Origin: a virus
DNA length: 64,000 nucleotides
Virus record (IMG/VR): IMGVR_UViG_3300020165_001964
Strand: one strand, 5' to 3'
Below the pieces are notes generated by a model that saw only the letters and a program-made list of their open reading frames with translations, was not told the origin of the DNA and ran no database searches. The translations under genes were made by a program, and so were the position numbers. Shown one piece after another: positions 26,930-53,670 of the stretch; the first letter of the stretch is position 1, and every line of letters begins with the position of its first letter.

Positions 26930-26992
26930 TTTTGAGAATTCTTGTATATATGTATATATAGAGAGATTAAATAACAATTAACAAATGGAGAA

Positions 26993-27727: not shown

Positions 27728-28941
27728 TGTACTTAGAGTACTTTAACAAGTTCAAGAATATGGAACCATATCTTTTTATTGGTGAAGAGGAATGGGAACA
27801 CATCAAGAATACTTTTGATAAAGACGATGTAAAAGAATCTTTGGCAAAAGTTGCGATGGAATATCCCATTCCTTATGCCAGTATTTCTGAGGATGATGCA
27901 TTTGATGCTCTCAAGAAACTAAAGGGTATGAGACACAACGAAATACTCGTTGAGGGAGAATGGTTCGCTCGTGAGGGTACTGATTTTAAATACGATTTAA
28001 CATTCGAGGGTAAACAACAATACTTTAAACGAATCAATACTGGTAACAAAGCAAGTAATTTCTTTCAACAAGTAAATCGATGGAGTGTTGATGGTACAAT
28101 TGCACCAGGTCCAAAGAGAACTTGGGAAACCGAAAAGTATATGACGAGTTTGATGGGTTCTGCATACTCACTTAAGTTATCAAAGATAGATGCAGGTAAC
28201 TTGAGAATTATGTTGAGTTTGAGAAAATATATTTGTTCTCAATTTAAACCAAATGTTGCCAAGGTATTGTATGATAAGTTAGGAAGTAAAAGTATATTGG
28301 ATTTCTCAGCAGGTTGGGGAGATAGATTGGCTGGATTCTATGCAAGTGAAACAGGTGAGTTTTACATGGGTATAGACCCACGAAAAGAAAATCATCCCAT
28401 CTATCATGAACAATCAGAGTTCTACGATAAACACAGAACTATGTTTGAAGTTCCTAAGAAGAGTATGTTTGTAGAACATCCTGCAGAGGATTTTGAATAC
28501 AAAAAGAATTCGTATGATACGGTCTTTACATCACCACCTTATTTTAATGTTGAGAGATATAGTTATGATGATACACAAAGTTGGGTTAGATATAAAACTA
28601 TTGATGAGTGGAATAAAAACTTTTTACAACATACACTAAAAAAAATATGGCCTTCTATCAAGAGAGGTGGATATTTATTAGTGAACATAAGTGATGTTTA
28701 CGCAAGTAGTGGTGGTAGTAAGAAGTGGTTAGAGATATGTAATCCTATGAATGATTTCTTAAGTACACTAAGTGATTCAGAGTATCAAGGTTGTATTGGA
28801 ATGGAGATGGCTAAACGACCTAATAGTGGTGGGGCAGGAACAGCATCAGAAGATAGATACAAAGACGAAACAAAGGAACTGGCAGAACAGACGAAAGATA
28901 AAACATTTTGTGAACCAATATGGGTATGGAAAAAGTATTAA
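27727..28941 (+). CDS. SAM-dependent amino (N4C/N6A) DNA methyltransferase-like protein
   Basis: LDFSAGWG motif I and FTSPPYF motif IV. Confidence 0.8.
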   Translation: MYLEYFNKFKNMEPYLFIGEEEWEHIKNTFDKDDVKESLAKVAMEYPIPYASISEDDAFDALKKLKGMRHNEILVEGEWFAREGTDFKYDLTFEGKQQYFKRINTGNKASNFFQQVNRWSVDGTIAPGPKRTWETEKYMTSLMGSAYSLKLSKIDAGNLRIMLSLRKYICSQFKPNVAKVLYDKLGSKSILDFSAGWGDRLAGFYASETGEFYMGIDPRKENHPIYHEQSEFYDKHRTMFEVPKKSMFVEHPAEDFEYKKNSYDTVFTSPPYFNVERYSYDDTQSWVRYKTIDEWNKNFLQHTLKKIWPSIKRGGYLLVNISDVYASSGGSKKWLEICNPMNDFLSTLSDSEYQGCIGMEMAKRPNSGGAGTASEDRYKDETKELAEQTKDKTFCEPIWVWKKY

Positions 28942-28955
28942 CAAAAAGGAATAAC

Positions 28956-29879
28956 ATGGAAGAAATTAAAAACACATTATGGGTAGAAAAATATCGGCCG
29001 TCGAAACTTGACAGCTACATAGGTAACCAACACCTAAGAAGTAAAGTCAAGGTCTACATCGAGAGTGGAGATTTACCACACCTTTTACTATACGGACGTG
29101 CTGGTACAGGTAAAACCACTCTCGCTAAATTACTTGTTAATAATATAGAGTGTGATTATCTTTACATCAACGCATCTGATGAGAATAGTGTGGATGTGGT
29201 TCGTGATAAAGTAAAGAACTTTGCATCAACACTTGGATTCAAAGAGATGAAAGTTATTATCTTGGATGAGTGTGATTACATTACACCAAATGCTCAGGCA
29301 GCACTAAGAAATCTAATGGAAACATTTAGTAAGAATTGTAGGTTTATCTTAACTTGTAATTATGTTGAGAGAATCATTGACCCAATTCAAAGTAGATGTC
29401 AATCATTTCAAATCATTCCACCAGATAGAAAAGAAGTTGCAGTTCATTTAAATACCATCCTAACAAAAGAGGGAGTTAAATCAGATATTGAAGATATTGT
29501 AACCATAGTTAATGGTGGTTTTCCTGATTTAAGAAGAGTGATTAATGCCGCACAAAGACAAGTAGTGAATGGTGAGTTGGTTATTGATGAGGGTATGAGT
29601 ATTCAGAATGATTACAAGAACCAAGTATTAGAAATCTTGAAAACACAAGATAAGAAGAATTGTTTTAAAAATATAAGACAACTATTAGCAGATTCAAAGG
29701 TAACAGATTTCTCTGATTTATTCAGATTGTTATTTGATACAGTCGATGATTGGGGTAGAGGTCATGTGGCTGAGTGTATTTTAGTTTTGGCTCAGTATCA
29801 ACAAAGTGATGCAGTAGTGGTAGATAAAGAAATTAACATTATGGCAATGTTTATTGAAATTATTGGCAAGGTAAAGTGA
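28956..29879 (+). CDS. Clamp loader AAA+ subunit (gp44/RFC-like)
   Basis: WVEKYRP, GRAGTGKT, NASDE, LDECD and SRC. Confidence 0.95.
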   Translation: MEEIKNTLWVEKYRPSKLDSYIGNQHLRSKVKVYIESGDLPHLLLYGRAGTGKTTLAKLLVNNIECDYLYINASDENSVDVVRDKVKNFASTLGFKEMKVIILDECDYITPNAQAALRNLMETFSKNCRFILTCNYVERIIDPIQSRCQSFQIIPPDRKEVAVHLNTILTKEGVKSDIEDIVTIVNGGFPDLRRVINAAQRQVVNGELVIDEGMSIQNDYKNQVLEILKTQDKKNCFKNIRQLLADSKVTDFSDLFRLLFDTVDDWGRGHVAECILVLAQYQQSDAVVVDKEINIMAMFIEIIGKVK

Positions 29880-30991
29880 GAAAAGGATTTTGTGTATCAC
29901 CATTTCGATATGCCGAAATAAGAGATAACGGAGATGTTTGGCAGTGTTGTACGAGTTGGATAGAAAAACCAGCTGGTAATATCTTAACAGATAAATGGGA
30001 TGATATTTGGAATAGTAATTACGCAAAAAGATTAAGAAGAAGTATGCACAAAGGTGATTTCTCTATGTGTGATGAAAACTTATGTCCTTACATTCAAAAG
30101 TGGAATAAAGGTGAAGAGGATTATTCAGCATACTTTCCAATATATGATGAATCAACATTTGAAAAGTTATGGGATGCAAAAGAAATAAATCCTAATGGAA
30201 AGAAAAAGTATCAAAATATAATAGAAAACAAAACTATTGATTTACCTTATGGGCCTGAAAGTGTTACATTTGCTCACGATAGAAGTTGTAATTTAGCTTG
30301 TCCATCTTGTAGAAAAGATTTCTTTAAAACAGAGGGTAAAGATAGAGAACAAACTTATAAGATACAAGAGTTAATTATGGGAGAACCTATATGTGATACT
30401 CACGAGGTTTATATAACTAACTCAGGTGATGCATTTGGAGCAGATGTATTTAGAGATTTATTGAAAATGATTAACACTAAAGATTTTCCAAATTTAGTTA
30501 ATTTACATTTACATACAAATGCTAATAGTTGGTCAAGAACACATTGGAATAAACTTAAAAACTTACACGATATTCCAAGATTAACTTGTCATATTAGTAT
30601 TGATGCATGTACAAAAGAAACTTACGAAATAGTAAGAAAAGGTGGTAAGTGGGAAACACTTCAGAAAAACTTAAAGTTTATATTTGAAGATATTCCTAAT
30701 TTAAAATTTATTAGAACATCATTTGTTTGTCAAGATTTAAATTATAAAGAGATGAGTGGTTTTGTAAAATTAATTGATGATTTAAGTTATGGTTCAGATG
30801 CCATAGTTGAAGTAGAGTTTGGACAATTTACTGATTGGGGTGTGAGTTCAAAGGAAATAGTTGAACAAAGACAGATATTTAAGAGAACACATCCTAATTA
30901 TAATTTGTTTTTAGAAGAATATAAAAAAATGTTAAAGTTAGATAAGAATGTACTTATTACAGATAATTTAGATATAGAGGAGTTAACATGA
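29876..30991 (+). CDS. Radical SAM protein with N-terminal SPASM/twitch-like domain
   Basis: CNLACPSC (CxxxCxxC); N-terminal C..GDVWQCC..GNI..IWNS. Confidence 0.85.
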   Translation: MRKGFCVSPFRYAEIRDNGDVWQCCTSWIEKPAGNILTDKWDDIWNSNYAKRLRRSMHKGDFSMCDENLCPYIQKWNKGEEDYSAYFPIYDESTFEKLWDAKEINPNGKKKYQNIIENKTIDLPYGPESVTFAHDRSCNLACPSCRKDFFKTEGKDREQTYKIQELIMGEPICDTHEVYITNSGDAFGADVFRDLLKMINTKDFPNLVNLHLHTNANSWSRTHWNKLKNLHDIPRLTCHISIDACTKETYEIVRKGGKWETLQKNLKFIFEDIPNLKFIRTSFVCQDLNYKEMSGFVKLIDDLSYGSDAIVEVEFGQFTDWGVSSKEIVEQRQIFKRTHPNYNLFLEEYKKMLKLDKNVLITDNLDIEELT

Positions 30992-31224
30992 GTAAAGATA
31001 GAAAATATCAAGAACCACCACAACCTGTGGATATTAGTGATACAGAAACAATAGTTTGTGAAGAGTGTGGAAACGCATCTTTCATACAATCATTCTTTCT
31101 GAAAAGAATATCACCATTAGTATCACCAACAGGTAAAGAAGCAATCGTACCAATACAAGTATTTGCATGTGGTAATTGTGGTTCAATACCAAAGAACATG
31201 ATGAATCAAATTGCAGAGCAATAG
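30988..31224 (+). CDS. Zn-ribbon protein
   Basis: CEECG..CGNCG. Confidence 0.7.
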   Translation: MSKDRKYQEPPQPVDISDTETIVCEECGNASFIQSFFLKRISPLVSPTGKEAIVPIQVFACGNCGSIPKNMMNQIAEQ

Positions 31225-31664
31225 TGTATTACAAAATAGATTTAACTGATTATGAACCACGAGAAACTCATAATTATTTAGAGTTTGATGAGTTTAAATT
31301 TAATCCTTATCAATTAGAAACTATTGAAAAGGAATTAAATAACTTTCAAGATTCATTTGGAAGACCTTGGAAAGAGTGGGATATGTCTGATTTGAAAGAT
31401 AGATTGCAAAACAATTTCACATTTTATTTACTTGAGGGTGGTTGGTGTTTTATAGATTGGGATAAAAAATATCCTTATTTATGTAATCGTTATGTGTTTT
31501 CAGAACACAGAGGCAAAGGGTTAGGAAAAGATTTGGTTTGGTTAAGGTGTAATGAAATCAAAAAACGAGGATTAAATACTGCTTCAATTAAATTAGATTG
31601 GTGGAACACACCAGCATTATCAGTCAAAAAAGATTATATTTTCACCGAAATTGATGGTATTTGA
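31224..31664 (+). CDS. GNAT-family acetyltransferase
   Basis: YVFSEHRGKGLG acetyl-CoA motif and NTPA; probable GTG start. Confidence 0.75.
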   Translation: MYYKIDLTDYEPRETHNYLEFDEFKFNPYQLETIEKELNNFQDSFGRPWKEWDMSDLKDRLQNNFTFYLLEGGWCFIDWDKKYPYLCNRYVFSEHRGKGLGKDLVWLRCNEIKKRGLNTASIKLDWWNTPALSVKKDYIFTEIDGI

Positions 31665-31705
31665 TATTTATATATGAAAAGTTTTATAGAAATTAGGAAA
31701 ACAAT

Positions 31706-33970
31706 ATGTCAACACAGATAACAAGAACAACAGAATTTATTAATCATATTACAGGTAGTGCAGGTAATTGGCCTTCATTATCAAATGCTGGAATTCTTGG
31801 TGGTATAGACTACCTTATAGAAAGTGGTTCCAACGAAGTAAAATTTATAGAAATGAATACCAATATTGGAATTGTTGGTAGTGCAGCAATACAGACAGGT
31901 AGTTACTTCGATGTAATATCAGATTATGTAAATGATAAAGGATACACGACTACTTATGTTTATGGAGTTAATCACAATGGTAAAAAAAATCCATCAACAC
32001 TTCAACAACCATTAATTAGTGCTAGTTTTGCACGACATGATATAACGACTAATTTTGAATATGGTGATAGTCTAACAAGAACATACTTTTTACAAAGAGG
32101 AGACGAAGACCACTTAGATAAGTTTCATTTATGGATGCAAACGCCTTGGTATAGTGATGATAATTTAAAAAGTATAGTTAGTGGTTCATTTGATAAAAAT
32201 ACATTTAGAACATTTTTGGGTAATTCACCATTTAGTTCTTCTTTGATACCATCATTTGATAAGGATAATTATACACCAAATAATAATTATCCAGATTTTG
32301 TAGTTAAAACTGCAACTCAAGATTCGAGTGTTCAAACTAATAAAATTGGTTTTTACACATACAATTCAACAAGTTCAAGTTATCAAAATGGAGTTGATAG
32401 TGGTTCTTTGATAGAAGAATATATTGTTCATAGTGGAAGTTACAGAGATGGACAATCACATTTGGGTGTGGGTAAAATAGAGTTTATGATGACACCAGAA
32501 AAGGTTATTGTGTTTGGTGATAGAGATTCTGGTAGAAATGTTAAACTAAAACCTACAGCAACAGATAGTTGGGATTATATAGGGCAAAAAGCAAAAACAT
32601 CTGCGAGTGGTAGTTTAATTAAAATGTATGATGGTTCAACAAAACAGGTTCAAGATGTTGAAGTTGGGGATGTTGTTTTAAGTTATCAACCATATGGAAT
32701 GCCAGATGAATCAAAAGATTATTTATCTTACACCACAACAGATTTAAGTGGTTCTACAACACAAGGTTCTATTGTTGTAGATGTAATGAACACCGAAAAT
32801 TATGGATATTATTTAATCAATGGTAGTATTAAAGCACCTTATAATTTACAACAGGCTAGTAGTGATATTAGATATTTTGTAAAACAAGGAGATACTTGGG
32901 AATGGATAACAACAGATGCTATTAGAACTGGAGATTATCTTTTAGACACAAGTGGTAATGAAACAGAAGTTACATCAAAGACAGAACATGATGGTGATAC
33001 ACTTTGGTATGCACTTGATGTAGAGGATATTGATACTTACTTCCAATCAAATATATTGGTTCACAATATTCCACCAAAGTGTTTTGTAGCAGGAACACCA
33101 ATCACTATGGGTGATGGAACTACAAAAGTTATTGAAAGAATTGAAATCGGTGATGAAGTTATGAATTATAATTTCAAAGATGAAGAAGTTCAGACAGGTA
33201 AAGTTACCACGATTGATACACCAACACACGCAGATATTATAGAGATTAGTTTTGGTGATAAGAAGACAAAGAATACATTTGACCATCCATATTGGGTAGT
33301 TGGAAAAGGTTGGAGTTCATATAAACCAGAGTGGACTAAAAAACGATATGATATAGAATCAAATCAATTAGAAATTGGTGATAAGTGTTTAGAACTTCGT
33401 GATGGTAAATTAGTGGAAAGAGAAATTACTAATATTGTTGAAGATATAAATCCAGTCCAAACTTATTCATTAGAAATAACAACAAACCATAACTATTTTG
33501 CAAATGATGTATTAGTTCATAACAAATTTTGTTTAATGGAAGACCAAGTTATTAATATGGGAGATGGTGTTTATAAAAGAATTGATGAGATAGAATTAGG
33601 TGAAAGTATTTTACAATACGATGAAGAAACTGAAGAGTTTAAAGAGGGTAAAGTAAATATGATAAGAAAGAAACTACATGATAATTGTTATGGAATCAAA
33701 GTTGAAAGTGGACAAACAATTAAAGCAACTGATAACCATCCATTTTTATTGAGAGATAAAGGTTGGTCTACAATTGCTGAGAACAATCCAATGTTTTTAC
33801 AAGATGGTGGTGGTATTATAAAAGTTGGTGATTATGTTAGAGATATAGATGGATGGGTAGAAATTGTAGAAATCAATAAAATTGAGGGAGAATATATAAC
33901 ATATAACTTGTTAGAACAAGATTATGGAACTATTATTGCTCATGATATTGTAACTCACAATTCACCTTAA
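31706..33970 (+). CDS. Putative permuted ATP-grasp domain fused to three tandem Hint (intein-like) domains
   Basis: Hint1 aa298-454 ending LVHN; Hint2 aa459-606 (CFVAGT..TFDHP..LVHN); Hint3 aa609-752 (CL..TDNHP..VTHN). N-domain has GIDY..FIEMNTN before PDFVVK..LIEEYI. Confidence 0.8.
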   Translation: MSTQITRTTEFINHITGSAGNWPSLSNAGILGGIDYLIESGSNEVKFIEMNTNIGIVGSAAIQTGSYFDVISDYVNDKGYTTTYVYGVNHNGKKNPSTLQQPLISASFARHDITTNFEYGDSLTRTYFLQRGDEDHLDKFHLWMQTPWYSDDNLKSIVSGSFDKNTFRTFLGNSPFSSSLIPSFDKDNYTPNNNYPDFVVKTATQDSSVQTNKIGFYTYNSTSSSYQNGVDSGSLIEEYIVHSGSYRDGQSHLGVGKIEFMMTPEKVIVFGDRDSGRNVKLKPTATDSWDYIGQKAKTSASGSLIKMYDGSTKQVQDVEVGDVVLSYQPYGMPDESKDYLSYTTTDLSGSTTQGSIVVDVMNTENYGYYLINGSIKAPYNLQQASSDIRYFVKQGDTWEWITTDAIRTGDYLLDTSGNETEVTSKTEHDGDTLWYALDVEDIDTYFQSNILVHNIPPKCFVAGTPITMGDGTTKVIERIEIGDEVMNYNFKDEEVQTGKVTTIDTPTHADIIEISFGDKKTKNTFDHPYWVVGKGWSSYKPEWTKKRYDIESNQLEIGDKCLELRDGKLVEREITNIVEDINPVQTYSLEITTNHNYFANDVLVHNKFCLMEDQVINMGDGVYKRIDEIELGESILQYDEETEEFKEGKVNMIRKKLHDNCYGIKVESGQTIKATDNHPFLLRDKGWSTIAENNPMFLQDGGGIIKVGDYVRDIDGWVEIVEINKIEGEYITYNLLEQDYGTIIAHDIVTHNSP

Positions 33971-33992
33971 TAGAAACTAAAAAGGTTGTAGG

Positions 33993-34619
33993 ATGGGAAA
34001 ATATAAACATAATAATAATTTCAAGTATTCAATTCAAATACCAAATTTCTTATCACATGAAAAGTGTGATGAAATAATTAAACAAGTTACAGATACAGAA
34101 GAACAAGTTGTAGGTTGTGTTGGTGATGAAAAGGGTAGTGTAATCATACCAGAAATCAGACAAACAAAAGAATGGTATTTAACAGACCAACCATTAAATG
34201 ATATGAGACCTGATAAAACTGCCAATGATTGGGGTTGGATACAGAAGAAAATGTACACGATTATTCAAATGGTAAATAAAGATATTTTCAAATTTGATAT
34301 CAGAGGTTATCATGATGAGTTAAAACTAATAGAATACCAAGATGGTGGTTTCTATGGTTGGCATACAGATTTTAATGCAGGTTATTGTTCAGTAAGAAAG
34401 TTAGTAGGAATAATTCAATTAACAGACCCGAGTGAATATGAGGGTGGAGATGTTCAATTCGGTATCCAAGATAAAAATACAAAAGAATGGTACACTATGG
34501 AGAAGAAAAAAGGCTCACTAACAATCTTTCCAACATTCTTATCACACAATGTAACACCAGTCACTAAAGGTAAACGACATGTAATTCAAGAATTATTTGT
34601 AGGAGACCATTTTAGGTGA
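33993..34619 (+). CDS. 2OG-Fe(II) oxygenase (P4H/PKHD-like)
   Basis: WHTD..YEGG..HNVTPVTKGKR. Confidence 0.92.
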   Translation: MGKYKHNNNFKYSIQIPNFLSHEKCDEIIKQVTDTEEQVVGCVGDEKGSVIIPEIRQTKEWYLTDQPLNDMRPDKTANDWGWIQKKMYTIIQMVNKDIFKFDIRGYHDELKLIEYQDGGFYGWHTDFNAGYCSVRKLVGIIQLTDPSEYEGGDVQFGIQDKNTKEWYTMEKKKGSLTIFPTFLSHNVTPVTKGKRHVIQELFVGDHFR

Positions 34620-35149
34620 TTGCAAATAAAAACTTTGAGTGGTTTTTAGTTAGAGATAACTTTTTATCATCTCAAGAGTGTGATGATGAAATTAAGTTTA
34701 TAGATAGTAATGTAAAAAAAGATAATTTTGTTTCGGGTGATATGCATGATTGTAAAAATGTTGATATAGAAAATGAAAAATTATTAGATAGACTATGGAA
34801 AGTAGTAAAACTATCTAACACATTGGTATATAAATTTGATATATCAGGTATTCAAGGTTCTTGTGGGAAGTTATATTCAGTAGATACATTTACAGCAGAT
34901 GATAATTATCATACAGACTTTGCAGCAGGAGATGGAAGTGTTGTTAATAGTTGTACTAAATTATCTTGTTTAATATTTTTAAATGATGATTTTGAGGATG
35001 GTGGATTACAAATTTGGAACGATAAAATAGATGCTAAAAAAGGTAGGTTAGTTATATTTCCATCATTTGCAGCACATAAAGTTTTACAATTTAGTGAAAA
35101 GGATAGATACACATTAATAACTTTCATAGGGGGCAATACTTTTAAATGA
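34616..35149 (+). CDS. 2OG-Fe(II) oxygenase
   Basis: YHTD..FLNDDFEDG..HKV..DRY. Confidence 0.88.
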   Translation: MIANKNFEWFLVRDNFLSSQECDDEIKFIDSNVKKDNFVSGDMHDCKNVDIENEKLLDRLWKVVKLSNTLVYKFDISGIQGSCGKLYSVDTFTADDNYHTDFAAGDGSVVNSCTKLSCLIFLNDDFEDGGLQIWNDKIDAKKGRLVIFPSFAAHKVLQFSEKDRYTLITFIGGNTFK

Positions 35150-35757
35150 AATATAAAAATATAAACATGGAAGAGTTGAAGATAAACCAAGATTTTAGAT
35201 GGTTTATTACAAGACCTAATTTCTTTTCAAAGGATGAATGTGAATATATGATAAAACATATAGATAAGACCTCAACAAGAAAGAAAGGACATTATACTGA
35301 AAACCGAGAAGATAGTTCATCATTGACTTGGGATACAACAGAGGATAGTAATGTTTGTATGTTAAACATTAGTAGAACAGAAGAGCAAAAGTATCTTGAT
35401 AAGTTTTGGAGTGCAATACAAATTGCAAACATAACAACATTCAAATATAATTTAAGTGGAATATTTGAAAATAGAGTACAGGCACACAGATATGATGTAG
35501 GTGATTGGTATAATCCACATGCGGATTTTCACTCAATACAAAAGTTTAGTTCAGTAAAATTAACTTGTATTGTATTTTTAAACGACCAACAAGATTATGA
35601 GGGTGGTGAGTTCAGAATGTTTGACGGAACAATCATAGAACCAGAAGTGGGGAAATTAATTATACATCCCGCATTTGCAGGACACGAGGTTAAACCAGTT
35701 ACAAAGGGTGAGAGATATTCTTGTGTTTGTTGGGCAGTAGGAGATACTTTCGTATGA
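35146..35757 (+). CDS. 2OG-Fe(II) oxygenase
   Basis: PHAD..YEGGEF..HEVKPVTKGER. Confidence 0.92.
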   Translation: MKYKNINMEELKINQDFRWFITRPNFFSKDECEYMIKHIDKTSTRKKGHYTENREDSSSLTWDTTEDSNVCMLNISRTEEQKYLDKFWSAIQIANITTFKYNLSGIFENRVQAHRYDVGDWYNPHADFHSIQKFSSVKLTCIVFLNDQQDYEGGEFRMFDGTIIEPEVGKLIIHPAFAGHEVKPVTKGERYSCVCWAVGDTFV

Positions 35758-36323
35758 TACAAAATGATAATTTTAAATTTGTAGTACATAAAGAGAATTT
35801 TTTATCTAATTCACAATGTGATAACTTGATAAAATATTTGGATGAAGTAAATCCAAATGATTCAGAACTTGCAGGAAAGTATGATGAAAATATTTTAAAT
35901 AAAAAGGTTCGTAACAATAAAGAAGTTATATTCAAAGATGATAAATTAAGAAATAAACTAAAAATGATTTTTGAATTATCAAACTTATCAATTTGGAATT
36001 TTGATATACAGAAAATGGAAGATGTAAAACTTTTAAAGTATGATGTTGGTGGTAAATATGAATGGCATACTGATTGTGGTTCCAAGAAAACTTCTAAAAG
36101 AAAACTAACTGCCATTGTTCAGTTATCAGATGAAACAACATACGAGGGTGGAGATTTAGAATTTGGAATCACCGAAGATTCAGGTGGGAAAAATTATACT
36201 GCACCAAGAGAGAGAGGGAGTATCACAATATTTCCTGCGTTCTTATCACATAGAGTAACACCAATCACTAAAGGAACTCGTTACTCATTAATAACTTGGA
36301 TGTTGGGAAATGCATTTAAATAA
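35754..36323 (+). CDS. 2OG-Fe(II) oxygenase
   Basis: WHTD..YEGGDL..HRVTPITKGTR; ATG at 35754 overlaps the upstream stop. Confidence 0.92.
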   Translation: MIQNDNFKFVVHKENFLSNSQCDNLIKYLDEVNPNDSELAGKYDENILNKKVRNNKEVIFKDDKLRNKLKMIFELSNLSIWNFDIQKMEDVKLLKYDVGGKYEWHTDCGSKKTSKRKLTAIVQLSDETTYEGGDLEFGITEDSGGKNYTAPRERGSITIFPAFLSHRVTPITKGTRYSLITWMLGNAFK

Positions 36324-36951
36324 AGTATTAGTATTAGGTTGTAGTCGTAGTGGAACAACAGAGTTTTGTAAAACACTACAAGAAGTTTCATCAAAGAAAT
36401 TTGTATGGGAGTTTGGATTTGATGACAATCTCAATAGATTAGTTAGTAGTTTAGGCATTACAGAATTTTTAGATAGAATATACAAAGATAAAAATACTCT
36501 TGGAATCAAGTATGGTGTTTATCCACAGAAAAAAATACATTTAGATTTGATAGATTCTCATGATATTGTTTTTTTCTTATCAAGAAGAAATGTATTTGAA
36601 CAGGCAATTTCATTGAACTTAGCAAAAAGAACGGATAAGTGGAGACCAATAGATTTTGGAGTTGAAACATTTTCACAAAAAGAAAAAGATGAATACAACA
36701 AGTTAAAAATTGAAAAGATTGAGGTTGAAGATATAAAAAAAGATATACAAGGTATTAAAGAAGCATCAATCAAGGTTATTGATTATTTAAAAACTCACAA
36801 GAGTTCAAGGGTATTATTTTATGAAGATTTATTTGGATTCTTTTCAGGTGTGAAATTAAATACACAAAAGAATTATAAAAATATTGAGAACTGGCAAGAA
36901 CTAAAAACTTTTTACGAACAGAATAAAGATTTTTGTCATTTTCACTTATAA
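36310..36951 (+). CDS. Sulfotransferase (Stf0-like)
   Basis: LGCSRSGTT PAPS-binding loop, RRNVFEQAIS and YEDL. Confidence 0.8.
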   Translation: MHLNKVLVLGCSRSGTTEFCKTLQEVSSKKFVWEFGFDDNLNRLVSSLGITEFLDRIYKDKNTLGIKYGVYPQKKIHLDLIDSHDIVFFLSRRNVFEQAISLNLAKRTDKWRPIDFGVETFSQKEKDEYNKLKIEKIEVEDIKKDIQGIKEASIKVIDYLKTHKSSRVLFYEDLFGFFSGVKLNTQKNYKNIENWQELKTFYEQNKDFCHFHL

Positions 36952-36983
36952 GTTTTATACTTATTTATATCTAAAAGGTTATT

Positions 36984-37415
36984 ATGAAAACAAAATCGTT
37001 ATTCGACCATATAAAACAAATTACTAATGTACAAAATCCAATGTATTGGGAATCACTTGATGAGGGTGATAAAAAAACTTGGAGTAACTACATGGTTCAT
37101 CGCTTTCTTAGTATGAAATCAGAGTGGTTGGTTGTAGTAAATGAAATACAAAAGTATTGGGAGTTGGCTCCTAAGAATGTGTATCAGTTTTACACCGATG
37201 TACTACCAAAGGGTAGAACATTCTTAAGGTATGTGAAATCAAAAAAGAAATCTAAAGTAGAGAAGTGGGCAATGGAACATTTAGTAGATTACTTTGAATG
37301 TAGTACACGAGAAGTAGAACAGCACTTAGATATTTTGACTAAAGAACAAGTTACCACCATCATTATGAAATATGGTGTAGATGATAAACAATTGAAAAAG
37401 ATATGGAGTAAGTAA
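36984..37415 (+). CDS. Clamp loader small subunit (gp62-like)
   Basis: SLFDHIKQI..YMVHRFLSM..YFECS pattern typical of gp62 homologues. Confidence 0.75.
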   Translation: MKTKSLFDHIKQITNVQNPMYWESLDEGDKKTWSNYMVHRFLSMKSEWLVVVNEIQKYWELAPKNVYQFYTDVLPKGRTFLRYVKSKKKSKVEKWAMEHLVDYFECSTREVEQHLDILTKEQVTTIIMKYGVDDKQLKKIWSK

Positions 37416-38207
37416 TTGGTGGAGAATATCTATTGGACTGGTGGATTTGATTCTACATTCTTAGTTTGTAAAAGGTTAATTATAGAAAAGAAACCAATTG
37501 AAACATACTATTTGAATTTCCCATGTGATGGTTACCAGCATAACTATAATAGATTTGATTCAAGTAATTTTCATAATTGTATGATTGATAATGAATTGAA
37601 TGCTGTTGATAATGACCCATATGGTAGAAAAAGTTATGGTAGATATAGTAGATTAGTAGAAGTAGAAGTAATGAATAAATTAAGAGAAATGATTATCGAT
37701 AAATTCCCATACACCAAAGAGTTGTTTCCTAAAGTGAATTTGGTTAAAGAATTTGAAATTGATTCTGAAGTTCTAAATGATTCAAAAGTTATTTGTGATG
37801 AGTATAATTCAAGACCTGATAGACCAGACCAAAGTTTGTATATGATACAATTCTCTTTAGATTTAGATGAAGATATATCTGTTGCGTGGGAAGCAGATAA
37901 GGATGGAGAAGATTATTGTTTATCAACACGATTGGTACGAAAGCATTTAAATAAAAAGTTTAAGGTACATAGTGATTCGATAAAAGAATTATGGTTGTAT
38001 AAGAATTGGGTATTACCATTAGTAGAAACTTATAGAGAAGAGATGGTCAACATGGCACAATCTTCTAATTTCATAGATATCTTGAAACATACTTGGTCTT
38101 GTAGGTTTCCAAAGAAAAACGGAGATGTTTGTGATGATTGTACATTAGATATTAAGGAACTGAATAGAGTTGATAATTACAAGGATATATTATGTACGAC
38201 TATTTAA
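37416..38207 (+). CDS. QueC-like PP-loop ATPase
   Basis: WTGGFDST PP-loop and TWSC..CDDC cysteine cluster. Confidence 0.7.
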   Translation: MVENIYWTGGFDSTFLVCKRLIIEKKPIETYYLNFPCDGYQHNYNRFDSSNFHNCMIDNELNAVDNDPYGRKSYGRYSRLVEVEVMNKLREMIIDKFPYTKELFPKVNLVKEFEIDSEVLNDSKVICDEYNSRPDRPDQSLYMIQFSLDLDEDISVAWEADKDGEDYCLSTRLVRKHLNKKFKVHSDSIKELWLYKNWVLPLVETYREEMVNMAQSSNFIDILKHTWSCRFPKKNGDVCDDCTLDIKELNRVDNYKDILCTTI

Positions 38208-39448
38208 AAGAAATTCCACCAGAGTATAAGGAAAAATATAAAAATTCAGTTAATAATGCTCTATCTACACCTTTCGGAACTCAAGAAAGATATGATTTTG
38301 TAAAATATCAATTAGTTATAATTGCGTATAAAGAAGAGAATTTTATAGGTGAATGTGTAGAATCACTTATTAATCAAACTGCTTCACCTCATGAATTTGA
38401 AGTATTAATTATAAATAATTGTTCAGTAGAAGAAGAATTAGATAATACTGAAATGGTAGTTAAAGAGAAATTAGATAAATACAAATATGATAATATACAT
38501 TTAATAAATGTAAAGTTTCCCAAAGAAATACAAGGTGCAGCCTTAGCAGCAAAATTTGGAATAGATGTTGCATTACATAGATGGAGTAATTATGAGGATT
38601 TTAATGATGGAATAGTTGCATTTCTTGGAGCAGATAATATTTTTGAAAATCATTATGTTGAGGAAGTAATAAAAACATTTGAGAATCCATCAAACTATAA
38701 AAACCCACATCAATTGAATCCGATAGAAGAGGATACATTAGATATATTGGTAACGAATTGTGATAATTATAAGTTTACCAGTTCTGATAATATAATTAAT
38801 ATTTCAGTATTGAAACCTTATCTAAATAAATTGGATGTTATGAATGAGTTATTGGGAAAGTGGTACTTTAAAAATTTTGATATAAATTGGGGAGTAAAAA
38901 AAGAAACCAAAAAAACCTTAGATGATAATTTATTGTATAGAGAGGATGATGGAACTTCAGTATGGCCCAAAACATTTAGAGCATCAACATATAATGATTT
39001 AGGTGGAATTGGAATTCAACCACAAGAAGAGCAGTCTATAATCATAAAGGCCGTAGTAAATAATTGTGTTTTCAAATATAATGATATGACAAATTATACT
39101 CATGTACATAGATTAGAAAAACCAAGAGTACCCGATGGTAGTATATCACAATGGTATTATGATAGTGCTCAAGCTTATATTAATAAGTCTGAATTAGAAG
39201 CCTACTCTCTTGATTATTGGACGATGAGAAACAACATTGAAAAGTATTTTTACGAAAAAAAATTCTATAGTGGTTGGAGACCAAAGTTTTTTTCAGAACA
39301 AGACTTAGATAAAATATTAAAAGAGTCAGGAGAATCATATTTATATTTTAGAAATAAGTTTATTCACCAATATCAAGGTGAGATAAATAAGATTTACAAA
39401 AAACAAAACATCAATAAAGTTATTGATGACATAAAGAAAAACCTATAA
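38192..39448 (+). CDS. GT-A fold (GT2-like) glycosyltransferase
   Basis: VIIAYKEENFIGECVESL..VLIINN..FLGAD. Confidence 0.7.
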   Translation: MYDYLKEIPPEYKEKYKNSVNNALSTPFGTQERYDFVKYQLVIIAYKEENFIGECVESLINQTASPHEFEVLIINNCSVEEELDNTEMVVKEKLDKYKYDNIHLINVKFPKEIQGAALAAKFGIDVALHRWSNYEDFNDGIVAFLGADNIFENHYVEEVIKTFENPSNYKNPHQLNPIEEDTLDILVTNCDNYKFTSSDNIINISVLKPYLNKLDVMNELLGKWYFKNFDINWGVKKETKKTLDDNLLYREDDGTSVWPKTFRASTYNDLGGIGIQPQEEQSIIIKAVVNNCVFKYNDMTNYTHVHRLEKPRVPDGSISQWYYDSAQAYINKSELEAYSLDYWTMRNNIEKYFYEKKFYSGWRPKFFSEQDLDKILKESGESYLYFRNKFIHQYQGEINKIYKKQNINKVIDDIKKNL

Positions 39449-39465
39449 ACGAAGTGGAGTAAAAA

Positions 39466-40026
39466 ATGAGTAAGAATTATAGAAATGAAGAAGCATTTTA
39501 CATGAAAGAGATGGAATGGGGTGTTAATTCAAAAACAAACACTACTTACATGAACTACGAATTTGATATAGATTCACTATATTCAACGATGGTTAAATGT
39601 GATTACTTAGTGAGAGTAAATCCAGGTACTGATATTAATTTAAAGATTGCATCTTATGGTGGTGATGTTTATGCGATGTTAGGTTTAGTTGATTACATCA
39701 GAAGTTTAGATGTAAAGGTTAACACACATTGTGTTGGAACTTGTATGAGTGCAGCATCAGTATTGTTAGCAAGTGGTACTGGTACAAGGACTATGAGTAA
39801 AAACTCTACAGTCATGGTTCATGAGGGTTCAGCGATAGAGACTGGTAAGGTTGGTGATGTTATGAAAGGTGTTGACCATTTGAAAGAACTACAAAAAGAA
39901 ATCAATAAATTGATGGAAGAAGTTACAAATAAAGATGCAAGGTTTTGGGAACTCACTCAGAGAAATGATACTTATTTGAACGCAAAACAATGTTTAGATA
40001 ATGGTATCATCGATAAAATTATTTAA
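39466..40026 (+). CDS. clpP: ClpP-like protease
   Basis: IASYGGDV, CMSAAS (catalytic Ser), VMVH and DTYLNA..GIIDKI. Confidence 0.85.
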   Translation: MSKNYRNEEAFYMKEMEWGVNSKTNTTYMNYEFDIDSLYSTMVKCDYLVRVNPGTDINLKIASYGGDVYAMLGLVDYIRSLDVKVNTHCVGTCMSAASVLLASGTGTRTMSKNSTVMVHEGSAIETGKVGDVMKGVDHLKELQKEINKLMEEVTNKDARFWELTQRNDTYLNAKQCLDNGIIDKII

Positions 40027-40034
40027 AATAATAC

Positions 40035-40064
40035 TTGACAAGTATACAGAAAAAGCCTTATATT
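40035..40064 (+). promoter_or_regulatory. Sigma70-like early promoter
   Basis: TTGACA-N18-TATATT. Confidence 0.75.
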
Positions 40065-40089
40065 AAGGGGTATTAAATTGGAGAAAAAT

Positions 40090-42369: not shown

Positions 42370-42390
42370 TTATAATATTAAGGGTTATAA

Positions 42391-52258: not shown

Positions 52259-53309
52259 TAAGTTTGCGATAGGATGTTTAGTACAATTCTATGAGATAGA
52301 TATCATTAGAGATTATTTAGTAAGTGTAAAAAAATCATTAGATAATGTAGAAAATAAAGACAATGTGATTATTGATATTTGTTTTAATTTGAATCAAGGT
52401 TTAGAAAAGGTTGATAAAAACAAAATATCAGTTGGTGAACTAAGAGATAAATTCAGAGTAATACTAAAAGAGGTATTTGGTTATGACCACCGCTATAATG
52501 ATGCACAAAACTACACTATAAACTTAGTAGAACATGATACCAATGGTGGTGATACGATAGAAGAGATTTATACTATTGCAGATTATAGAAGAGAGTTTAA
52601 TGAAAAATATTGTGAACAAGTTGATGTATTGATGTGGGGAGAAAGTGATGCGTTAATACCATCACAAACTTGGGAAGTATTAGATAACTTACATCTGGCA
52701 TCACAGAATAATGGTGTTCACAAGTATGTTAGTTTCTTTGCTACTTGTAAGATGTGGGATGATACTTGGAAGATATTAGAACATCCAGATTTTACAGATA
52801 AACCATTCATAGAGATGGATACAGAGAATTGGTGGAGTTTGAGATATAATATGAACCAAGATGAAATGGATGAGATTAATGATAGAACTGAAGAATTAGA
52901 TATACAACAAACAACACAATTAAAATTTAATGGGTGTGGTTTAGTGATTTCATCAGATGTAATTAAGAGTGGAGCAAATATTCCAAAGAGTGTATTTTTT
53001 GTACACGAGGATACTGCGTTCATGAATAATTGTTTGATACACTTTAGAAATCAATTACCACAATATATTATTAAGAACATTCTATTAGTACATAATAGGA
53101 AGTTAGAAAACAAGAGAATGTATGTACAAGGACAAGATTTCTCAGATGGTGATATGACGAGAATGAGAAAACAACAATATTGGTTTCCAAATGCCGATAA
53201 GATGAGTCAAAAAAATGCATTCAACACAACAGAACAAGGATATACATATTCATGGGAAGATGTATTTAGGGAGTTTGAAAATGGGAGCAATACACAGAGT
53301 AATACCTGA
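52245..53309 (+). CDS. Putative glycosyltransferase
   Basis: GESDAL and HEDTAF, inside the GT island. Confidence 0.5.
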   Translation: MKLTNKFAIGCLVQFYEIDIIRDYLVSVKKSLDNVENKDNVIIDICFNLNQGLEKVDKNKISVGELRDKFRVILKEVFGYDHRYNDAQNYTINLVEHDTNGGDTIEEIYTIADYRREFNEKYCEQVDVLMWGESDALIPSQTWEVLDNLHLASQNNGVHKYVSFFATCKMWDDTWKILEHPDFTDKPFIEMDTENWWSLRYNMNQDEMDEINDRTEELDIQQTTQLKFNGCGLVISSDVIKSGANIPKSVFFVHEDTAFMNNCLIHFRNQLPQYIIKNILLVHNRKLENKRMYVQGQDFSDGDMTRMRKQQYWFPNADKMSQKNAFNTTEQGYTYSWEDVFREFENGSNTQSNT

Positions 53310-53670
53310 TGATAGACCAGGACAAGTGTGGTGGTTTCATGGAAACAGCGGAAGTGGAAAGACAAACATAGCTTTAAAGTTTGATGTACCTAATAAGATA
53401 GTATTAGATGCAGATGATTTCAGAGAAAGTGTTTGGGATGATTTGGGTTTTGATGAAAAAAGTAGAAGAAAACAGAACGATAGGTTAGCGAGGATAGCAA
53501 GAGTGTTATGGGTACAAGGGAAAAATGTAGTTATAGCATCTATATGTCCATACGCAAACCAAAGAAAACAGATAAGGAACGAGATACTACCTGATGTTAA
53601 GTGGATTTATGTCAATAGTAAAGATAGTAAACCATCAACAAAAGAGTATCCATTCGAAGAAGGCTGGTAG
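53281..53670 (+). CDS. cysC: Adenylylsulfate (APS) kinase-like protein
   Basis: WFHGNSGSGKT, LDADDFR, LGFDEKSR, VIASICPY and PFEE. Confidence 0.8.
   Translation: MGAIHRVIPDDRPGQVWWFHGNSGSGKTNIALKFDVPNKIVLDADDFRESVWDDLGFDEKSRRKQNDRLARIARVLWVQGKNVVIASICPYANQRKQIRNEILPDVKWIYVNSKDSKPSTKEYPFEEGW

Follow-up and report, generated by a model that had tools for sequence, protein, structure and literature searches.

A variable enzyme island with a predicted ligase-Hint protein and 2OG-Fe(II) oxygenases between the clamp-loader genes of uncultured marine T4-like phages

Introduction

Iyer et al. (2010) predicted gene clusters in which dioxygenases occur together with ATP-grasp ligases, acetyltransferases, sulfotransferases and PAPS synthetases; the predicted chemistry was hydroxylation and then sulfation or methylation (PMC2938197). 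Multi-copy 2OG oxygenases are in addition a general trait of marine T4-like phages (PMC3037559). The locus described here is of the same broad type and combines a predicted ATP-grasp ligase, a GNAT acyltransferase, four oxygenases and a probable sulfotransferase. It lies between the clamp-loader genes gp44 and gp62 of an uncultured marine T4-like phage (IMG/VR record IMGVR_UViG_3300020165_001964), of which a stretch of 64,000 nt, the window, was analysed.

With a probability of about 50%, we propose that in a clade of uncultured marine T4-like phages this gap holds an accessory island that evolves rapidly, recombines and carries one functionally linked tailoring module. Its constant core would consist of the GNAT, the ATP-grasp ligase fused to a degenerate Hint domain and two to five anciently diverged P4H/PKHD-type 2OG-Fe(II) dioxygenases. 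Around this core, twitch- or B12-type radical SAM enzymes, several sulfotransferase families, a SAM methyltransferase, a Zn-ADH and Asp/Arg-hydroxylase-type oxygenases appear to be interchangeable. The ligase would form an amide bond between a carboxylate and an amine at the expense of ATP, the GNAT would perform an N-acylation and the oxygenases several hydroxylations, after which the new hydroxyls may be capped by sulfation, with PAPS from the phage APS kinase, or by methylation. As substrate of such a module, a sugar or glycoconjugate comes first, if tentatively, followed by a peptide or protein (the ligase's own [IL]P[PK]x tail among the candidates) and then by a small amine, for instance a polyamine or an amino acid, which is rather doubtful; other substrates make up the rest.

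Results and discussion

Gene content of the gp44-gp62 interval

The tailoring-enzyme genes are tightly packed on the + strand between the two clamp-loader genes (Table 1). They abut or overlap one another, and no terminator-like sites were found on the + strand inside the island. All genes that an earlier note on this DNA had named were recovered in place on this strand, with identities based on profile, motif and fold matches. A tblastn search with gp44 matched clamp-loader genes in 2,760 phage records, the best being 40-47% identical.

Table 1. Positions of the island genes, protein domains and neighbouring genes in the window
Feature	Position	Strand	Basis
gp44, clamp-loader large subunit, left backbone flank	28920..29879	+	AAA E 5e-19; weak Gp44_lid match
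Radical SAM, N-terminal twitch/SPASM-type auxiliary-cluster domain; optional island part	29876..30991	+	PF13186, PF04055
Zinc-ribbon protein, 78 residues, four-Cys; backbone gene	30988..31224	+	CEEC, CGNC
GNAT N-acyltransferase, core partner directly upstream of ligase	31176..31664	+	PF00583
Ligase-Hint protein, predicted ligase domain and three Hint domains	31706-33970	+	
Predicted ligase domain, residues 1-297	31706..32596	+	Predicted structure, fold matches
Hint 1, residues 298-454, apparently degenerate BIL/PT-Hint	32597..33067	+	PF07591, structure matches
IPPK stub, Hint 1 Asn454 to Hint 2 Cys459	33068..33079	+	
Hint 2, residues 459-606, apparently complete, BIL/mini-intein-like	33080..33523	+	Cys1, TFDH, HN
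Hint 3, residues 609-752, apparently complete, mini-intein-like, then Ser-Pro-stop	33530..33961	+	PF14890 E 4.5e-13
Oxygenase 1, P4H/PKHD-type 2OG-Fe(II) dioxygenase	33993..34619	+	PF13640 E 3e-12; phrog_61 E 7e-28
Oxygenase 2	34616..35149	+	PF13640 E 4e-9
Oxygenase 3	35146..35757	+	PF13640 E 1.6e-15
Oxygenase 4	35721..36323	+	PF13640 E 1e-15
Probable Stf0-like PAPS sulfotransferase, optional	36310..36951	+	Pfam Stf0 E 0.006, fold match
gp62, clamp-loader small subunit, right backbone flank	36984..37415	+	phrog_225 E 7e-18
QueC-like PP-loop ATPase, outside gp44-gp62 interval	37416..38207	+	TGGFDS; PF06508 E 0.018
GT2 glycosyltransferase	38192..39448	+	PF00535 E 5e-12
APS kinase, in downstream glycan island	53215..53670	+	PF01583 E 2e-15

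The N-terminal 297 residues of the ligase-Hint protein, which the earlier note had called a Hint polyprotein, are predicted to be a circularly permuted ATP-grasp amide ligase with the glutathione-synthetase/GspS/YgiC fold. Their AlphaFold model (pLDDT 80) matches YgiC (7uk8) in Foldseek at E 1e-7 and reaches Z scores of 10.2-11.9 against GSS22, T. brucei GS, YgiC and GspS over 217-259 aligned residues (VIA), while 17 diverse members all have D35, E49 and N51. An Atlas feature search with the ligase led to ATP-grasp and GshA clusters. No match to this domain was found in Pfam or NCBIfam, nor in any phage record, and the family counts only 39 representatives among 1.8 billion. We read it as a new, previously undescribed ATP-grasp type that is permanently fused to a degenerate Hint domain.

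The four PF13640 oxygenases span 33993-36323, share 30-38% identity with each other and all keep the HxD...H...R catalytic residues. Among solved structures, oxygenase 4 is closest to the PKHD-type hydroxylases PiuC (E 5e-5) and Sbal_3634. The GNAT scores 25 with its Pfam model (E 2.4e-5), above the cut-off of 20.7, and carries an RGKGLG acyl-CoA motif. For the probable sulfotransferase, the Pfam Stf0 match is below cut-off, and the AlphaFold model (pLDDT 78.5) has Stf0 (1tex) as its top fold match (E 3.8e-5, TMq 0.58), with P-loop kinases close behind. Its GCSRSGTT motif lacks the Walker-A Lys; the family is small and carries no Pfam annotation on record. The APS kinase is a possible source of PAPS for this enzyme.

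In the radical SAM protein, the SPASM/twitch domain covers residues 6-66 (E 1e-8) and PF04055 residues 136-278, with CxxxCxxC at 138-145. The best NCBIfam model is N_Twi_rSAM (NF033640), with an E value of 3e-23, yet its 82 bits fall short of the cut-off of 170. The zinc-ribbon protein has its CEEC at 24 and CGNC at 61. Downstream of gp62, the QueC-like protein combines the TGGFDS motif with a C-terminal Cys cluster; its own Pfam QueC match is marginal, and a relative in L034 (26% identical) matches QueC at E 7e-5.

Conservation and recombination of the island

Conservation was surveyed across marine viral and metagenome contigs, which yielded 110 non-identical ligase genes. A PF13640 oxygenase lies directly 3' of the ligase in 87 of the 93 loci with enough downstream sequence, and a sulfotransferase takes this position in two. 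The most frequent neighbour of the ligase is the orthologue of oxygenase 1. The GNAT is upstream of the ligase in 60 of 77 informative loci, directly in 51 and with a Zn-ADH between them in nine. Because the arrangement recurs in more than 100 related contigs, it is not due to chance. Nearly all loci come from a single phage clade, so that the conserved order may reflect inheritance rather than selection; only about three independent contexts are represented (the main clade, L030-34 and L073-74).

Around the core, two radical SAM types, four sulfotransferase types, the methyltransferase, the Zn-ADH and Asp/Arg-hydroxylase-type oxygenases are shuffled into at least 20 combinations among 45 complete islands. 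In relatives, the sulfotransferase is swapped for a B12 radical SAM (found near the ligase in L020, L023 and L026) or other enzymes. The radical SAM of the window is absent from L004-6, 50% identical in L007-11 and 95% identical in L042-45, though the ligase there is 48% identical. The QueC-like gene and the GT2 are kept in a subset of relatives; in L008, L010, L011 and many others the GT2 is absent and ClpP directly follows gp62. The earlier note had counted these three genes and the zinc-ribbon gene to the cluster. All four are present, but the first three occur in only some relatives, and the zinc-ribbon gene belongs to the backbone: in L026-28 it retains 92-97% identity, against 36-38% for the ligase.

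Gene by gene, the island is a mosaic that evolves apart from the backbone. In L026, identity to the window is 96-97% in the flanks but falls to 37% for the ligase and 44-51% for the oxygenases. Pairwise identities of gp44 and gp62 correlate with a rho of 0.71, versus 0.17 for ligase and gp44 and 0.16 for ligase and gp62. Ligase and GNAT reach 0.62; linkage decays inside the island (0.14 for ligase and oxygenase 4), and which radical SAM allele is present does not depend on the ligase. Moreover, the gap between gp44 and gp62 is a site of insertion more generally: nrdC and a small ORF occupy it in cyanophage ACG-2014f, and L030 and L034 carry ClpP, PfkB, an aaRS-like gene, Vut_1, GT25 genes and AdoMet decarboxylase.

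Such data could also mean that no common pathway exists and that unrelated genes have gathered at a recombination hot spot: stray transferases, a selfish gene laden with Hints, and oxygenase arrays like those of cyanophages. The mosaic exchange, the unrelated cargo in the same gap, the multiplicity of 2OG oxygenases in marine T4-like phages (PMC3037559) and the behaviour of extra Hint domains as mobile add-ons all fit this explanation. As the earlier note had cautioned, oxygenase arrays are common: a search with oxygenase 4 found homologues in 361 phage records, PF13640 arrays are widespread in marine phages that lack the ligase, and the ligase domain matched no phage record. However, the order GNAT, ligase, oxygenase persists at a ligase identity of about 50%, and even at the 36-38% of L026-28, and the island genes are translationally coupled. 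Furthermore, distant ligase-Hint genes (27-32% identical) adjoin oxygenases and sulfotransferases of other families: Sulfotransfer_4 and Asp_Arg_Hydrox in L030; Sulfotransfer_2, PhyH, 2OG-FeII_Oxy_5 and a methyltransferase directly upstream in L073, where no gp44 or gp62 match occurs within 8 kb on either side. Near the ligase of L037, Sulfotransfer_2, a Zn-ADH and a methyltransferase are found. Re-recruitment of non-orthologous enzymes of the same classes argues for a functional link, and we consider a chance assembly quite unlikely. In L033 and L034 the ligase is present and no oxygenase or GNAT is recognisable.

An inserted modification module, as the earlier note had proposed, is thus consistent with the recurrent order, the other-family enzymes beside distant ligases and the APS kinase; the excised peptides that it had attached to this module as substrates are not supported (see below).

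Glycan context

The island might instead act with the neighbouring glycosyltransferase genes in the synthesis or decoration of a sugar polymer or glycoconjugate of the virion or host surface. The ligase would then amidate a sugar carboxylate and the GNAT would acetylate an amino sugar; sugars would also be modified by the oxygenases, sulfotransferases, methyltransferase and ADH. Uronic acids are substrates of ATP-grasp amidoligases in capsule pathways, and carbohydrate sulfotransferase families include Stf0 and Sulfotransfer_2, both of which count in its favour. The QueC-like gene and the GT2 immediately follow gp62, with GT2, methyltransferase and APS kinase genes further downstream; three GT25 genes lie in the L034 gap and a PfkB sugar kinase in that of L030. 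In L073, the ligase-Hint gene is surrounded by two GT7 genes (one with a fused ConA-like lectin domain), a GT2-like gene and a CMP-sugar cytidylyltransferase gene. With such sugar-type accessory enzymes, a glycan has to be taken seriously as a substrate. On the other hand, many relatives keep the core without the QueC-like and GT2 genes, the large GT island 5 kb away is conserved regardless of the island variants, and sugar-nucleotide enzymes are absent from the gp44-gp62 interval of the window. Protein side chains are also the best-known targets of P4H/PKHD-type and Asp/Arg-hydroxylase-type oxygenases. Overall, a dedicated glycan pathway seems unlikely, if the least so of the alternatives to a linked tailoring module.

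Hint domains and the [IL]P[PK]x stub

The three Hint domains described in the earlier note are present. The model of Hint 1 resembles BIL2 (6tmm, Z 10.3), a BIL (2lwy, Z 9.9) and Hedgehog (1at0, Z 9.3), with residue 298 aligned to Hedgehog Cys258. This position is T, S, F, I or V across the family and TxxH is absent from Hint 1. Judged from these residues, the domain is degenerate and has kept only the C-terminal His-Asn of the catalytic set. Since both the conserved nucleophile and TxxH are missing, Hint 1 is presumably unable to cut itself off the ligase, while the His-Asn, needed for Asn cyclisation, would shed anything C-terminal to it. Hint 1 ends in an invariant VHN where a tail exists (66 loci) and in VHS-stop where there is none (5 loci). 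The tail is a stub of 4-5 residues, [IL]P[PK]x, followed directly by the protein end or by Cys1 of a further Hint.

Hint 2 has Cys1, TFDH at 524, HN at 605-606 and Lys at +1; Hint 3 has Cys1, TDNH at 675, HN at 751-752 and Ser at +1. By these motifs, both are complete and probably self-cleaving BIL/mini-intein-like additions. Hint 2 shares 25% identity with Hint 1 and 30% with Hint 3; among phage sequences it is closest to inteins in Vibrio phage helicases (31%). Hint 3 is missing in one- and two-Hint relatives, and L035, L040 and L049 have a Hint without the Asn in its place. Hints 2 and 3 are gained and lost among close relatives and are therefore dispensable for the pathway. This speaks against the proposal that excised IPPK, KF and SP peptides are the substrates: proteins carry one to four Hints, the linkers differ (KF, KSSF, KGPGSF, KICRF), SP is present only if Hint 3 is the last domain, and one-Hint forms have the same enzyme sets as multi-Hint forms. 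Independence of Hints from the enzymes, which the earlier note had regarded as counter-evidence, is seen in part, as five ligase-Hint loci lack both the GNAT and PF13640 oxygenases, and the oxygenase homologues of the 361 phage records occur where no ligase domain was matched.

A narrower peptide explanation is that Asn454 cyclisation at Hint 1 releases the stub, which would be free in one-Hint forms and a thioester on the next Hint's Cys1 in multi-Hint forms. Oxygenases, GNAT, and sulfotransferase or radical SAM would hydroxylate, acylate, sulfate or methylate it, and the ligase would join it to an acceptor. Its near-constant form is in line with this idea: in 66 loci the length is constant and the [IL]P start invariant, and extra Hints always begin directly after it. 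Asn and tail also co-occur, and the five tail-less loci are the same that lack the GNAT and PF13640 oxygenases, but this co-variation amounts to a single phylogenetic contrast. RiPP pathways often contain SPASM/twitch and B12 radical SAM enzymes, and the carboxylate substrate of GspS-type ligases is a short peptide, glutathione; both count for a peptide. Yet stub positions 3-4 vary (PK, KR, KM, KK, PL, PI, PRK, PGK), KF and SP are not conserved, two to five oxygenases are too many for one or two prolines or lysines, and spending a 450-residue protein per tetrapeptide would be a costly single-turnover design. The oxygenase family is widespread without the ligase, and the window showed neither a discrete precursor gene nor a Pro-rich or collagen-like target. 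A short post-Hint tail occurs in the unrelated protein NCTB as well. We consequently hold release of a stub peptide to be improbable.

NCTB is a phage tail-region protein with a C-terminal Hint that ends in HN followed by 7 residues.

Genomic context and gene content

The window is AT-rich (about 29-37% GC) with all long ORFs on the + strand, and its clamp genes show that it derives from a divergent marine T4-like phage. By tblastn, gp44 has clamp-loader matches in 2,760 phage records, and identity reaches only 40-47% in the best. Both genes flanking the island are homologous to the gp44/gp62 pair of the T4-type clamp loader. The interval between them is tightly filled by ten genes, many of which overlap at their stop and start codons; intergenic gaps measure 23-42 nt, and no terminator-like sites were seen on the + strand of this stretch. 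In cyanophage ACG-2014f, the same pair is separated by only two small genes. Megablast of the 9.6-kb stretch against GenBank phages gave no match at the DNA level, and tblastn of its radical SAM protein against GenBank phages gave none either. The gene inventory of the earlier note was correct, as each gene it named is present in the window. The GC content is about 29-31% over the island (window 30001-40000), 33-34% over the replication genes upstream (26001-30000) and 31-33% downstream (40001-44000).

Table. Positions of features in the window and on related contigs (L-numbered, carrying ligase-Hint genes or comparators)
Feature	Contig	Position	Strand	Match or remark
gp45-like sliding clamp	window	26993-27727	+	phrog_223
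gp44	window	28920-29879	+	AAA, E 5e-19
Ligase-Hint protein	window	31706-33970	+	
Four PF13640 oxygenases (Ox1-4)	window	33993-36323	+	
gp62	window	36984-37415	+	phrog_225, E 7e-18
PP-loop (QueC-like) protein, GT2, ClpP	window	directly after gp62, in that order		
APS kinase	window	53215-53670		PF01583, E 2e-15; inside downstream glycosyltransferase-rich region
Fifth oxygenase paralogue	L011	12919-13509		also in L012, L014, L016
Further PF13640 oxygenase	L026	2204-2869		
Second ClpP-like protease	L030	2290-2898		
Aminoacyl-tRNA-synthetase-like protein	L030	5284-6696		PF00587, E 8e-6
DUF5020 and Vut_1 transporter genes	L030	6697-7993		
DUF5020 and Vut_1 transporter genes	L034	5126-7990		
Protein ending in a complete Hint	L072 (Phage NCTB, LT598654.1)	1548-5462		
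ORF with Hint 1-like half	L073	2233-3297		
Hint 1-like domain	L075 (Shewanella hanedai, NZ_VKGK01000015.1)	8001-8444		

The ligase domain

The ligase-Hint protein has 754 residues, and an AlphaFold model was built on 17 diverse members of its family (pLDDT 80, pTM 0.82). Residues 1-294 match the fold of circularly permuted ATP-grasp ligases (Foldseek E 1e-7 to 7uk8; VIA Z 10.2-11.9, with 217-259 residues aligned to 5oeu, 2wyo, 7uka and 2io7). The matched structures are E. coli YgiC and YjfC, eukaryotic and trypanosomal glutathione synthetases and glutathionylspermidine/trypanothione synthetases, and a language-model look-up also points to ATP-grasp and GshA clusters. Residues 1-297 gave no profile match in Pfam (e.g. 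GSP_synth), NCBIfam or PDB sequences, and a ligase profile searched against PDB sequences did not reach GspS or YgiC. Because these sequence profiles failed, the link to GspS/YgiC is structural only.

D35, E49 and N51 are invariant in the 17 members, down to 24% identity. They probably represent the acidic residue and E-x-N pattern of Mg-ATP binding, a catalytic role inferred from the canonical ATP-grasp motif rather than from residue-level superposition, and they lie near the N-terminus as expected from the permuted order. According to the model, the domain is most probably a permuted ATP-grasp enzyme of the GspS/glutathione-synthetase branch and a candidate carboxylate-amine ligase. It shares the fold and the N-terminal D...E-x-N motif with GspS, YgiC, YjfC and glutathione synthetase, but it measures ~300 residues against 370-600 in those enzymes and is always fused to a Hint domain.

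Relatives of the ligase are rare, with only 39 found among 1.8 billion representative proteins in a full HMMER pass. All full-length relatives have at least 445 residues, so the ligase domain always precedes a Hint domain. Searches with the ligase domain matched none of the phage records, and nothing was found in viral or metagenome contigs for the distant family member P0016. The ligase was not found among 185,579 species genomes, in a scan made with a single Hint 1 motif that leaves absence unproven. The sole ligase-Hint profile match in these genomes is a Hint 1-like domain of Shewanella hanedai, 29% identical and without a ligase domain.

The Hint domains and the C-terminal stub

Hint 1 (residues 298-454) is of the BIL/PT-Hint kind (Z 10.3 to Tetrahymena BUBL BIL2, Z 9.9 to the Clostridium thermocellum BIL). 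Residue 298 superposes on Hedgehog Cys258 and on intein residue 1, and is T, S, F, I or V across the family. An N-terminal Cys/Ser/Thr nucleophile is thus not conserved, and the TxxH of block B is absent, so that self-cutting from the ligase is not to be expected. Wherever a tail is present (66 loci), Hint 1 keeps its C-terminal His-Asn, and a 4-5-residue stub, [IL]P[PK]x, comes next. Ile or Leu at +1 would permit C-terminal cleavage but no splicing. Five loci encode a protein that stops at ...VHS, without Asn or stub.

Hint 2 carries Cys459, TFDH at 524 and HN at 605-606, and resembles Vibrio phage helicase inteins (31% identity). Its +1 residue is Lys607 and not an intein nucleophile, which allows cleavage only and no splicing, as in BILs. 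Hint 3 has the complete intein motif set (Cys609, TDNH at 675, HN at 751-752 and Ser753 at +1; PF14890 E 4.5e-13) and no endonuclease domain. Given Ser at +1, it is predicted to be able to splice KF to SP, the short segments after Hints 2 and 3. The three Hints are not recent tandem duplicates, as their mutual identity is only 21-30%, and other inteins of the window can be ruled out as their source since it contains none.

Among the relatives, one (ending ...VHN-LPPK-stop), two, three or four Hints are found, in the combinations H1, H1+H2', H1+H2+H3, H1+H2+H2', H1+H3' and H1+H2+H3+H2', where H2' lacks the terminal Asn. The linkers between them differ as well (KF, KSSF, KGPGSF, KICRF). Therefore, the extra Hints are accessory, and KF and SP are not conserved products. 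The sequences show that the ligase remains joined to Hint 1, which can at most shed what comes after it, and that Hints 2 and 3 are dispensable.

The protein shares with BIL/PT-HINT domains (PF07591; BUBL BIL2 6tmm/6y75, C. thermocellum BIL 2lwy) the Hint fold, fast-evolving genes, a position before a variable C-terminal part and, in Hints 1 and 2, a C-terminal His-Asn without a +1 nucleophile. Unlike those domains, Hint 1 has neither the N-terminal nucleophile nor TxxH; its 'cargo' is a 4-5-residue stub or further Hints instead of a toxin or ubiquitin-like domain, and its host protein is a cytoplasmic-type enzyme. Hint 3 resembles the mini-inteins of phage replication proteins in Cys1, TxxH, His-Asn, +1 Ser and the lack of an endonuclease domain. 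Whereas mini-inteins interrupt essential proteins at a conserved site, the Hints studied here follow one another at the very C-terminus and have exteins of 2-6 residues. For intein biology, the fusion is unusual in that a half-disabled Hint is kept permanently and complete Hints are gained and lost at a 4-residue stub.

Two further Hint proteins were noted. In Phage NCTB, a gene beside the tail-fibre genes encodes a protein of 1,304 residues whose C-terminus is a complete Hint (Cys1, TQQH, VHN) plus a 7-residue tail, so tiny-tailed C-terminal Hints are also present in phage tail-region proteins. On contig L073, a 354-residue ORF precedes the ligase-Hint gene by 5 kb; its C-terminal half is Hint 1-like and its N-terminal half is unmatched.

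The other island enzymes

All four oxygenases pass the PF13640 gathering threshold (37.6-59 bits, cut-off 27). H124, H185 and R195 do not vary, each of the four window copies retains the Asp of HxD, and the mutual identity of the copies is only 30-38%. Their nearest solved relatives are PiuC and Sbal_3634, whose entries name both merely PKHD-type hydroxylases; no literature was found on PiuC with 2-oxoglutarate. A fifth paralogue occurs in four related contigs, in which H-S-G replaces the HxD iron ligand pair, so that it may be catalytically dead. A further PF13640 oxygenase gene of L026 lies outside the gp44-gp62 gap, with gp44 on one side and a DNA methylase-like gene on the other.

The radical SAM protein has an N-terminal auxiliary-cluster domain of the SPASM/twitch type (PF13186, residues 6-66) and, after it, CxxxCxxC at 138-145. 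This domain order is that of NCBIfam N_Twi_rSAM (NF033640), and at 82 bits (cut-off 170) the protein is probably a relative and no certified member of that family. The Zn-ribbon protein has 78 residues with four Cys. The GNAT carries an RGKGLG motif; against PDB sequences it gave only non-significant matches, to diamine acetyltransferases (E 0.2-0.6), and a polyamine reading was not rested on matches at such E-values.

The sulfotransferase candidate (213 residues) scores 16.6 bits with PF09037 (Stf0; cut-off 22). Its AlphaFold model (pLDDT 78.5) fits best to Stf0 1tex (E 3.8e-5), with P-loop kinases just behind. The P-loop (RSGTT) lacks the Walker-A Lys, and the stretch SRRNVFEQAIS resembles the 3'-PB motif. 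Searches of PDB sequences with the single sequence and with a profile returned only noise, and the homologues are all close relatives, none of which has a sulfotransferase family on record. It is the only sulfotransferase candidate seen, 16 kb upstream of the APS kinase, whose presence predicts that the phage can make PAPS. At the sequence level, the catalytic motifs are intact.

Related loci and island evolution

About 150 loci were collected from IMG/VR and marine metagenomes, representing 110 distinct ligase genes after removal of identical sequences; with 201 matching stretches, the module is widespread in ocean metagenomes. Loci were mapped with the window proteins and others typed here, 80 metagenome loci being annotated by tblastn with typed proteins only. 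Where at least 900 nt were available, the next gene downstream of the ligase is a PF13640-type oxygenase in 87 of 93 loci and a sulfotransferase in 2 of the 93, while the previous gene upstream is a GNAT (51 of 77) or a Zn-ADH with a GNAT just before it (9 of 77).

Island content is variable, with at least 20 enzyme combinations in 45 complete islands. Two to five oxygenases are found, as well as a SAM methyltransferase, a Zn-ADH and an Asp/Arg-hydroxylase-type oxygenase. The radical SAM enzyme is either twitch-type, after gp44, or a B12-binding protein of ~700 residues before gp62, and the sulfotransferases are Stf0-like, Sulfotransfer_2 or other. Between L026 and the window, gp45, gp44 and gp62 are 96-97% identical; the ligase is 37% and the oxygenases 44-51% identical.

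Across 13 complete, non-redundant loci, gp44 and gp62 agree well in their pairwise identities (rho 0.71), and those of the ligase correlate poorly with gp44 (0.17) and gp62 (0.16). Within the island, the ligase is linked to the GNAT (0.62), the Zn-ribbon gene (0.57) and Ox1 (0.54), and this linkage falls off to 0.14 at Ox4. Alleles of the radical SAM gene and the ligase assort independently. Exchange of the island as a single cassette is ruled out, as linkage decays gene by gene. The island is a gene-level mosaic evolving apart from its flanks. It evolves much faster than the surrounding replication genes, which is the behaviour expected in phage-host conflict.

Possible functional linkage and substrate

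We place the probability that the island genes form a functionally linked tailoring module at roughly 50%. The strongest evidence in its favour is given by the most divergent ligase-Hint genes, beside which the island's enzyme classes are represented by different families. In L030, whose ligase and gp44 share 32% and 71% identity with their window counterparts, genes for a Sulfotransfer_4 protein (E 5e-24) and an Asp_Arg_Hydrox oxygenase come after the ligase. In L073 (ligase 31% identical), the Hint is extended by ~200 residues, and the 8 kb on either side of the gene gave no match to gp44 or gp62. Directly upstream are a Sulfotransfer_2 protein, a PhyH dioxygenase, a methyltransferase and two 2OG-FeII_Oxy_5 oxygenases; downstream are GT7 glycosyltransferases, a radical SAM protein and a CMP-sugar cytidylyltransferase. 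Inheritance alone explains poorly that analogous oxygenases and sulfotransferases were recruited repeatedly beside the ligase.

However, the independent contexts number only about three, and in L033 and L034 the ligase stands without a recognisable oxygenase or GNAT, which counts against the link. The gp44-gp62 gap also takes up clearly unrelated genes: L030 and L034 carry ClpP, PfkB, an aaRS-like protein, Vut_1, DUF5020, GT25 genes and AdoMet decarboxylase there, and a cyanophage carries nrdC. Moreover, members of the oxygenase family were found in 361 phage records, chiefly of cyanophages and in some cases of pelagiphages and OM43 phages, and the ligase domain in none, and multi-copy 2OG oxygenases are a long-known trait of marine T4-like phages (Sullivan et al. 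2010, PMC3037559). The ClpP of L030 is a second ClpP-like protease, and its aaRS-like protein, of class II with 470 residues, adjoins the PfkB kinase.

If the genes do act together, family chemistry suggests how. The ligase would form an amide bond, the GNAT would acylate an amine and the diverged oxygenases would add several hydroxyl groups, to be capped by the sulfotransferase (using PAPS made via the phage APS kinase) or a methyltransferase, and the radical SAM enzymes would bring further changes.

Systems of this general class have already been predicted. Iyer, Abhiman, de Souza and Aravind 2010 (PMC2938197) described gene neighbourhoods of bacteria and phages in which several 2OG dioxygenases and ATP-grasp ligases accompany GCN5-type acetyltransferases, methyltransferases, sulfotransferases and PAPS synthetases, and proposed that peptides, secondary metabolites, collagen-like or tail-collar proteins are hydroxylated and then sulfated or methylated. 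They also reported tandem dioxygenase arrays in cyanophage Syn9. The clusters of these two papers share with the island the side-by-side enzyme classes, the hydroxylate-then-sulfate/methylate/acylate logic, the multi-copy, anciently diverged oxygenases in marine T4-like phages and the lack of a known product. Unlike those clusters, the island's module is placed between gp44 and gp62, and a GspS-type permuted ATP-grasp enzyme fused to Hint was not found in the available text of either paper. New are the ligase-Hint fusion, the ligase being known to date solely from viral and marine metagenome contigs (with cellular genomes scanned by a single Hint 1 motif), the conserved stub, the coming and going of additional Hints, the constant location between the clamp-loader genes and the combinatorial shuffling of tailoring enzymes. 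Of the unexplained 'auxiliary' genes of marine T4-like phages, multi-copy 2OG-Fe(II) oxygenases rank with the commonest. A module that links a set of them to a putative ATP-grasp amide ligase with a built-in self-cleaving domain offers a concrete handle on their substrate.

Points in favour of a peptide or protein substrate are the type of the oxygenases, the GspS-like ligase, the RiPP-style radical SAMs and the single co-variation seen, namely that the Asn and stub occur exactly where the GNAT and PF13640 oxygenases occur. No Pro-rich or collagen-like ORFs were found in the window. The island contains no separate precursor-peptide gene and no small ORFs in its intergenic gaps, which leaves the 4-residue tail of the ligase-Hint protein as the sole candidate RiPP 'core'. 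In such a route, Asn cyclisation in Hint 1 would shed [IL]P[PK]x (thioester-activated if a Hint follows), and the prolyl/lysyl-hydroxylase-like oxygenases, GNAT, sulfotransferase or radical SAM enzymes and ligase would turn it into a hydroxylated, acylated and sulfated peptide conjugate. We consider this unlikely. If true, it would be a new class of phage-made micro-RiPP in which the ligase-Hint enzyme carries its own ribosomal substrate and a Hint domain replaces the leader peptidase. The earlier note saw a tailoring cluster around the Hint protein and proposed a scheme in which IPPK, KF and SP would be excised and decorated. The linked module stays plausible, the decoration of KF and SP is not supported, and IPPK, the first stub, survives as a minority possibility.

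A glycan substrate is favoured by the carbohydrate-type sulfotransferase families, by the ADH, PfkB, GT25, GT7, GT2 and CMP-sugar synthetase genes and by the glycosyltransferase-rich region downstream. It is conceivable that the two combine, with hydroxylated residues anchoring glycans. Neighbouring DUF1599, QueC-like, methylase and SLOG genes would suit DNA modification, which was rejected as the leading reading because the oxygenases are of the P4H/PKHD type and not Tet/JBP or AlkB.

In their gp44-gp62 gap, directly upstream of the ligase-Hint gene, the most divergent relatives, L030 and L034, carry a DUF5020 gene and a Vut_1 (YhhQ-family) transporter gene, and the gap of L034 also holds genes for a QueC-like protein and AdoMet decarboxylase. 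A link of these genes to 7-deazaguanine precursors or polyamines is possible.
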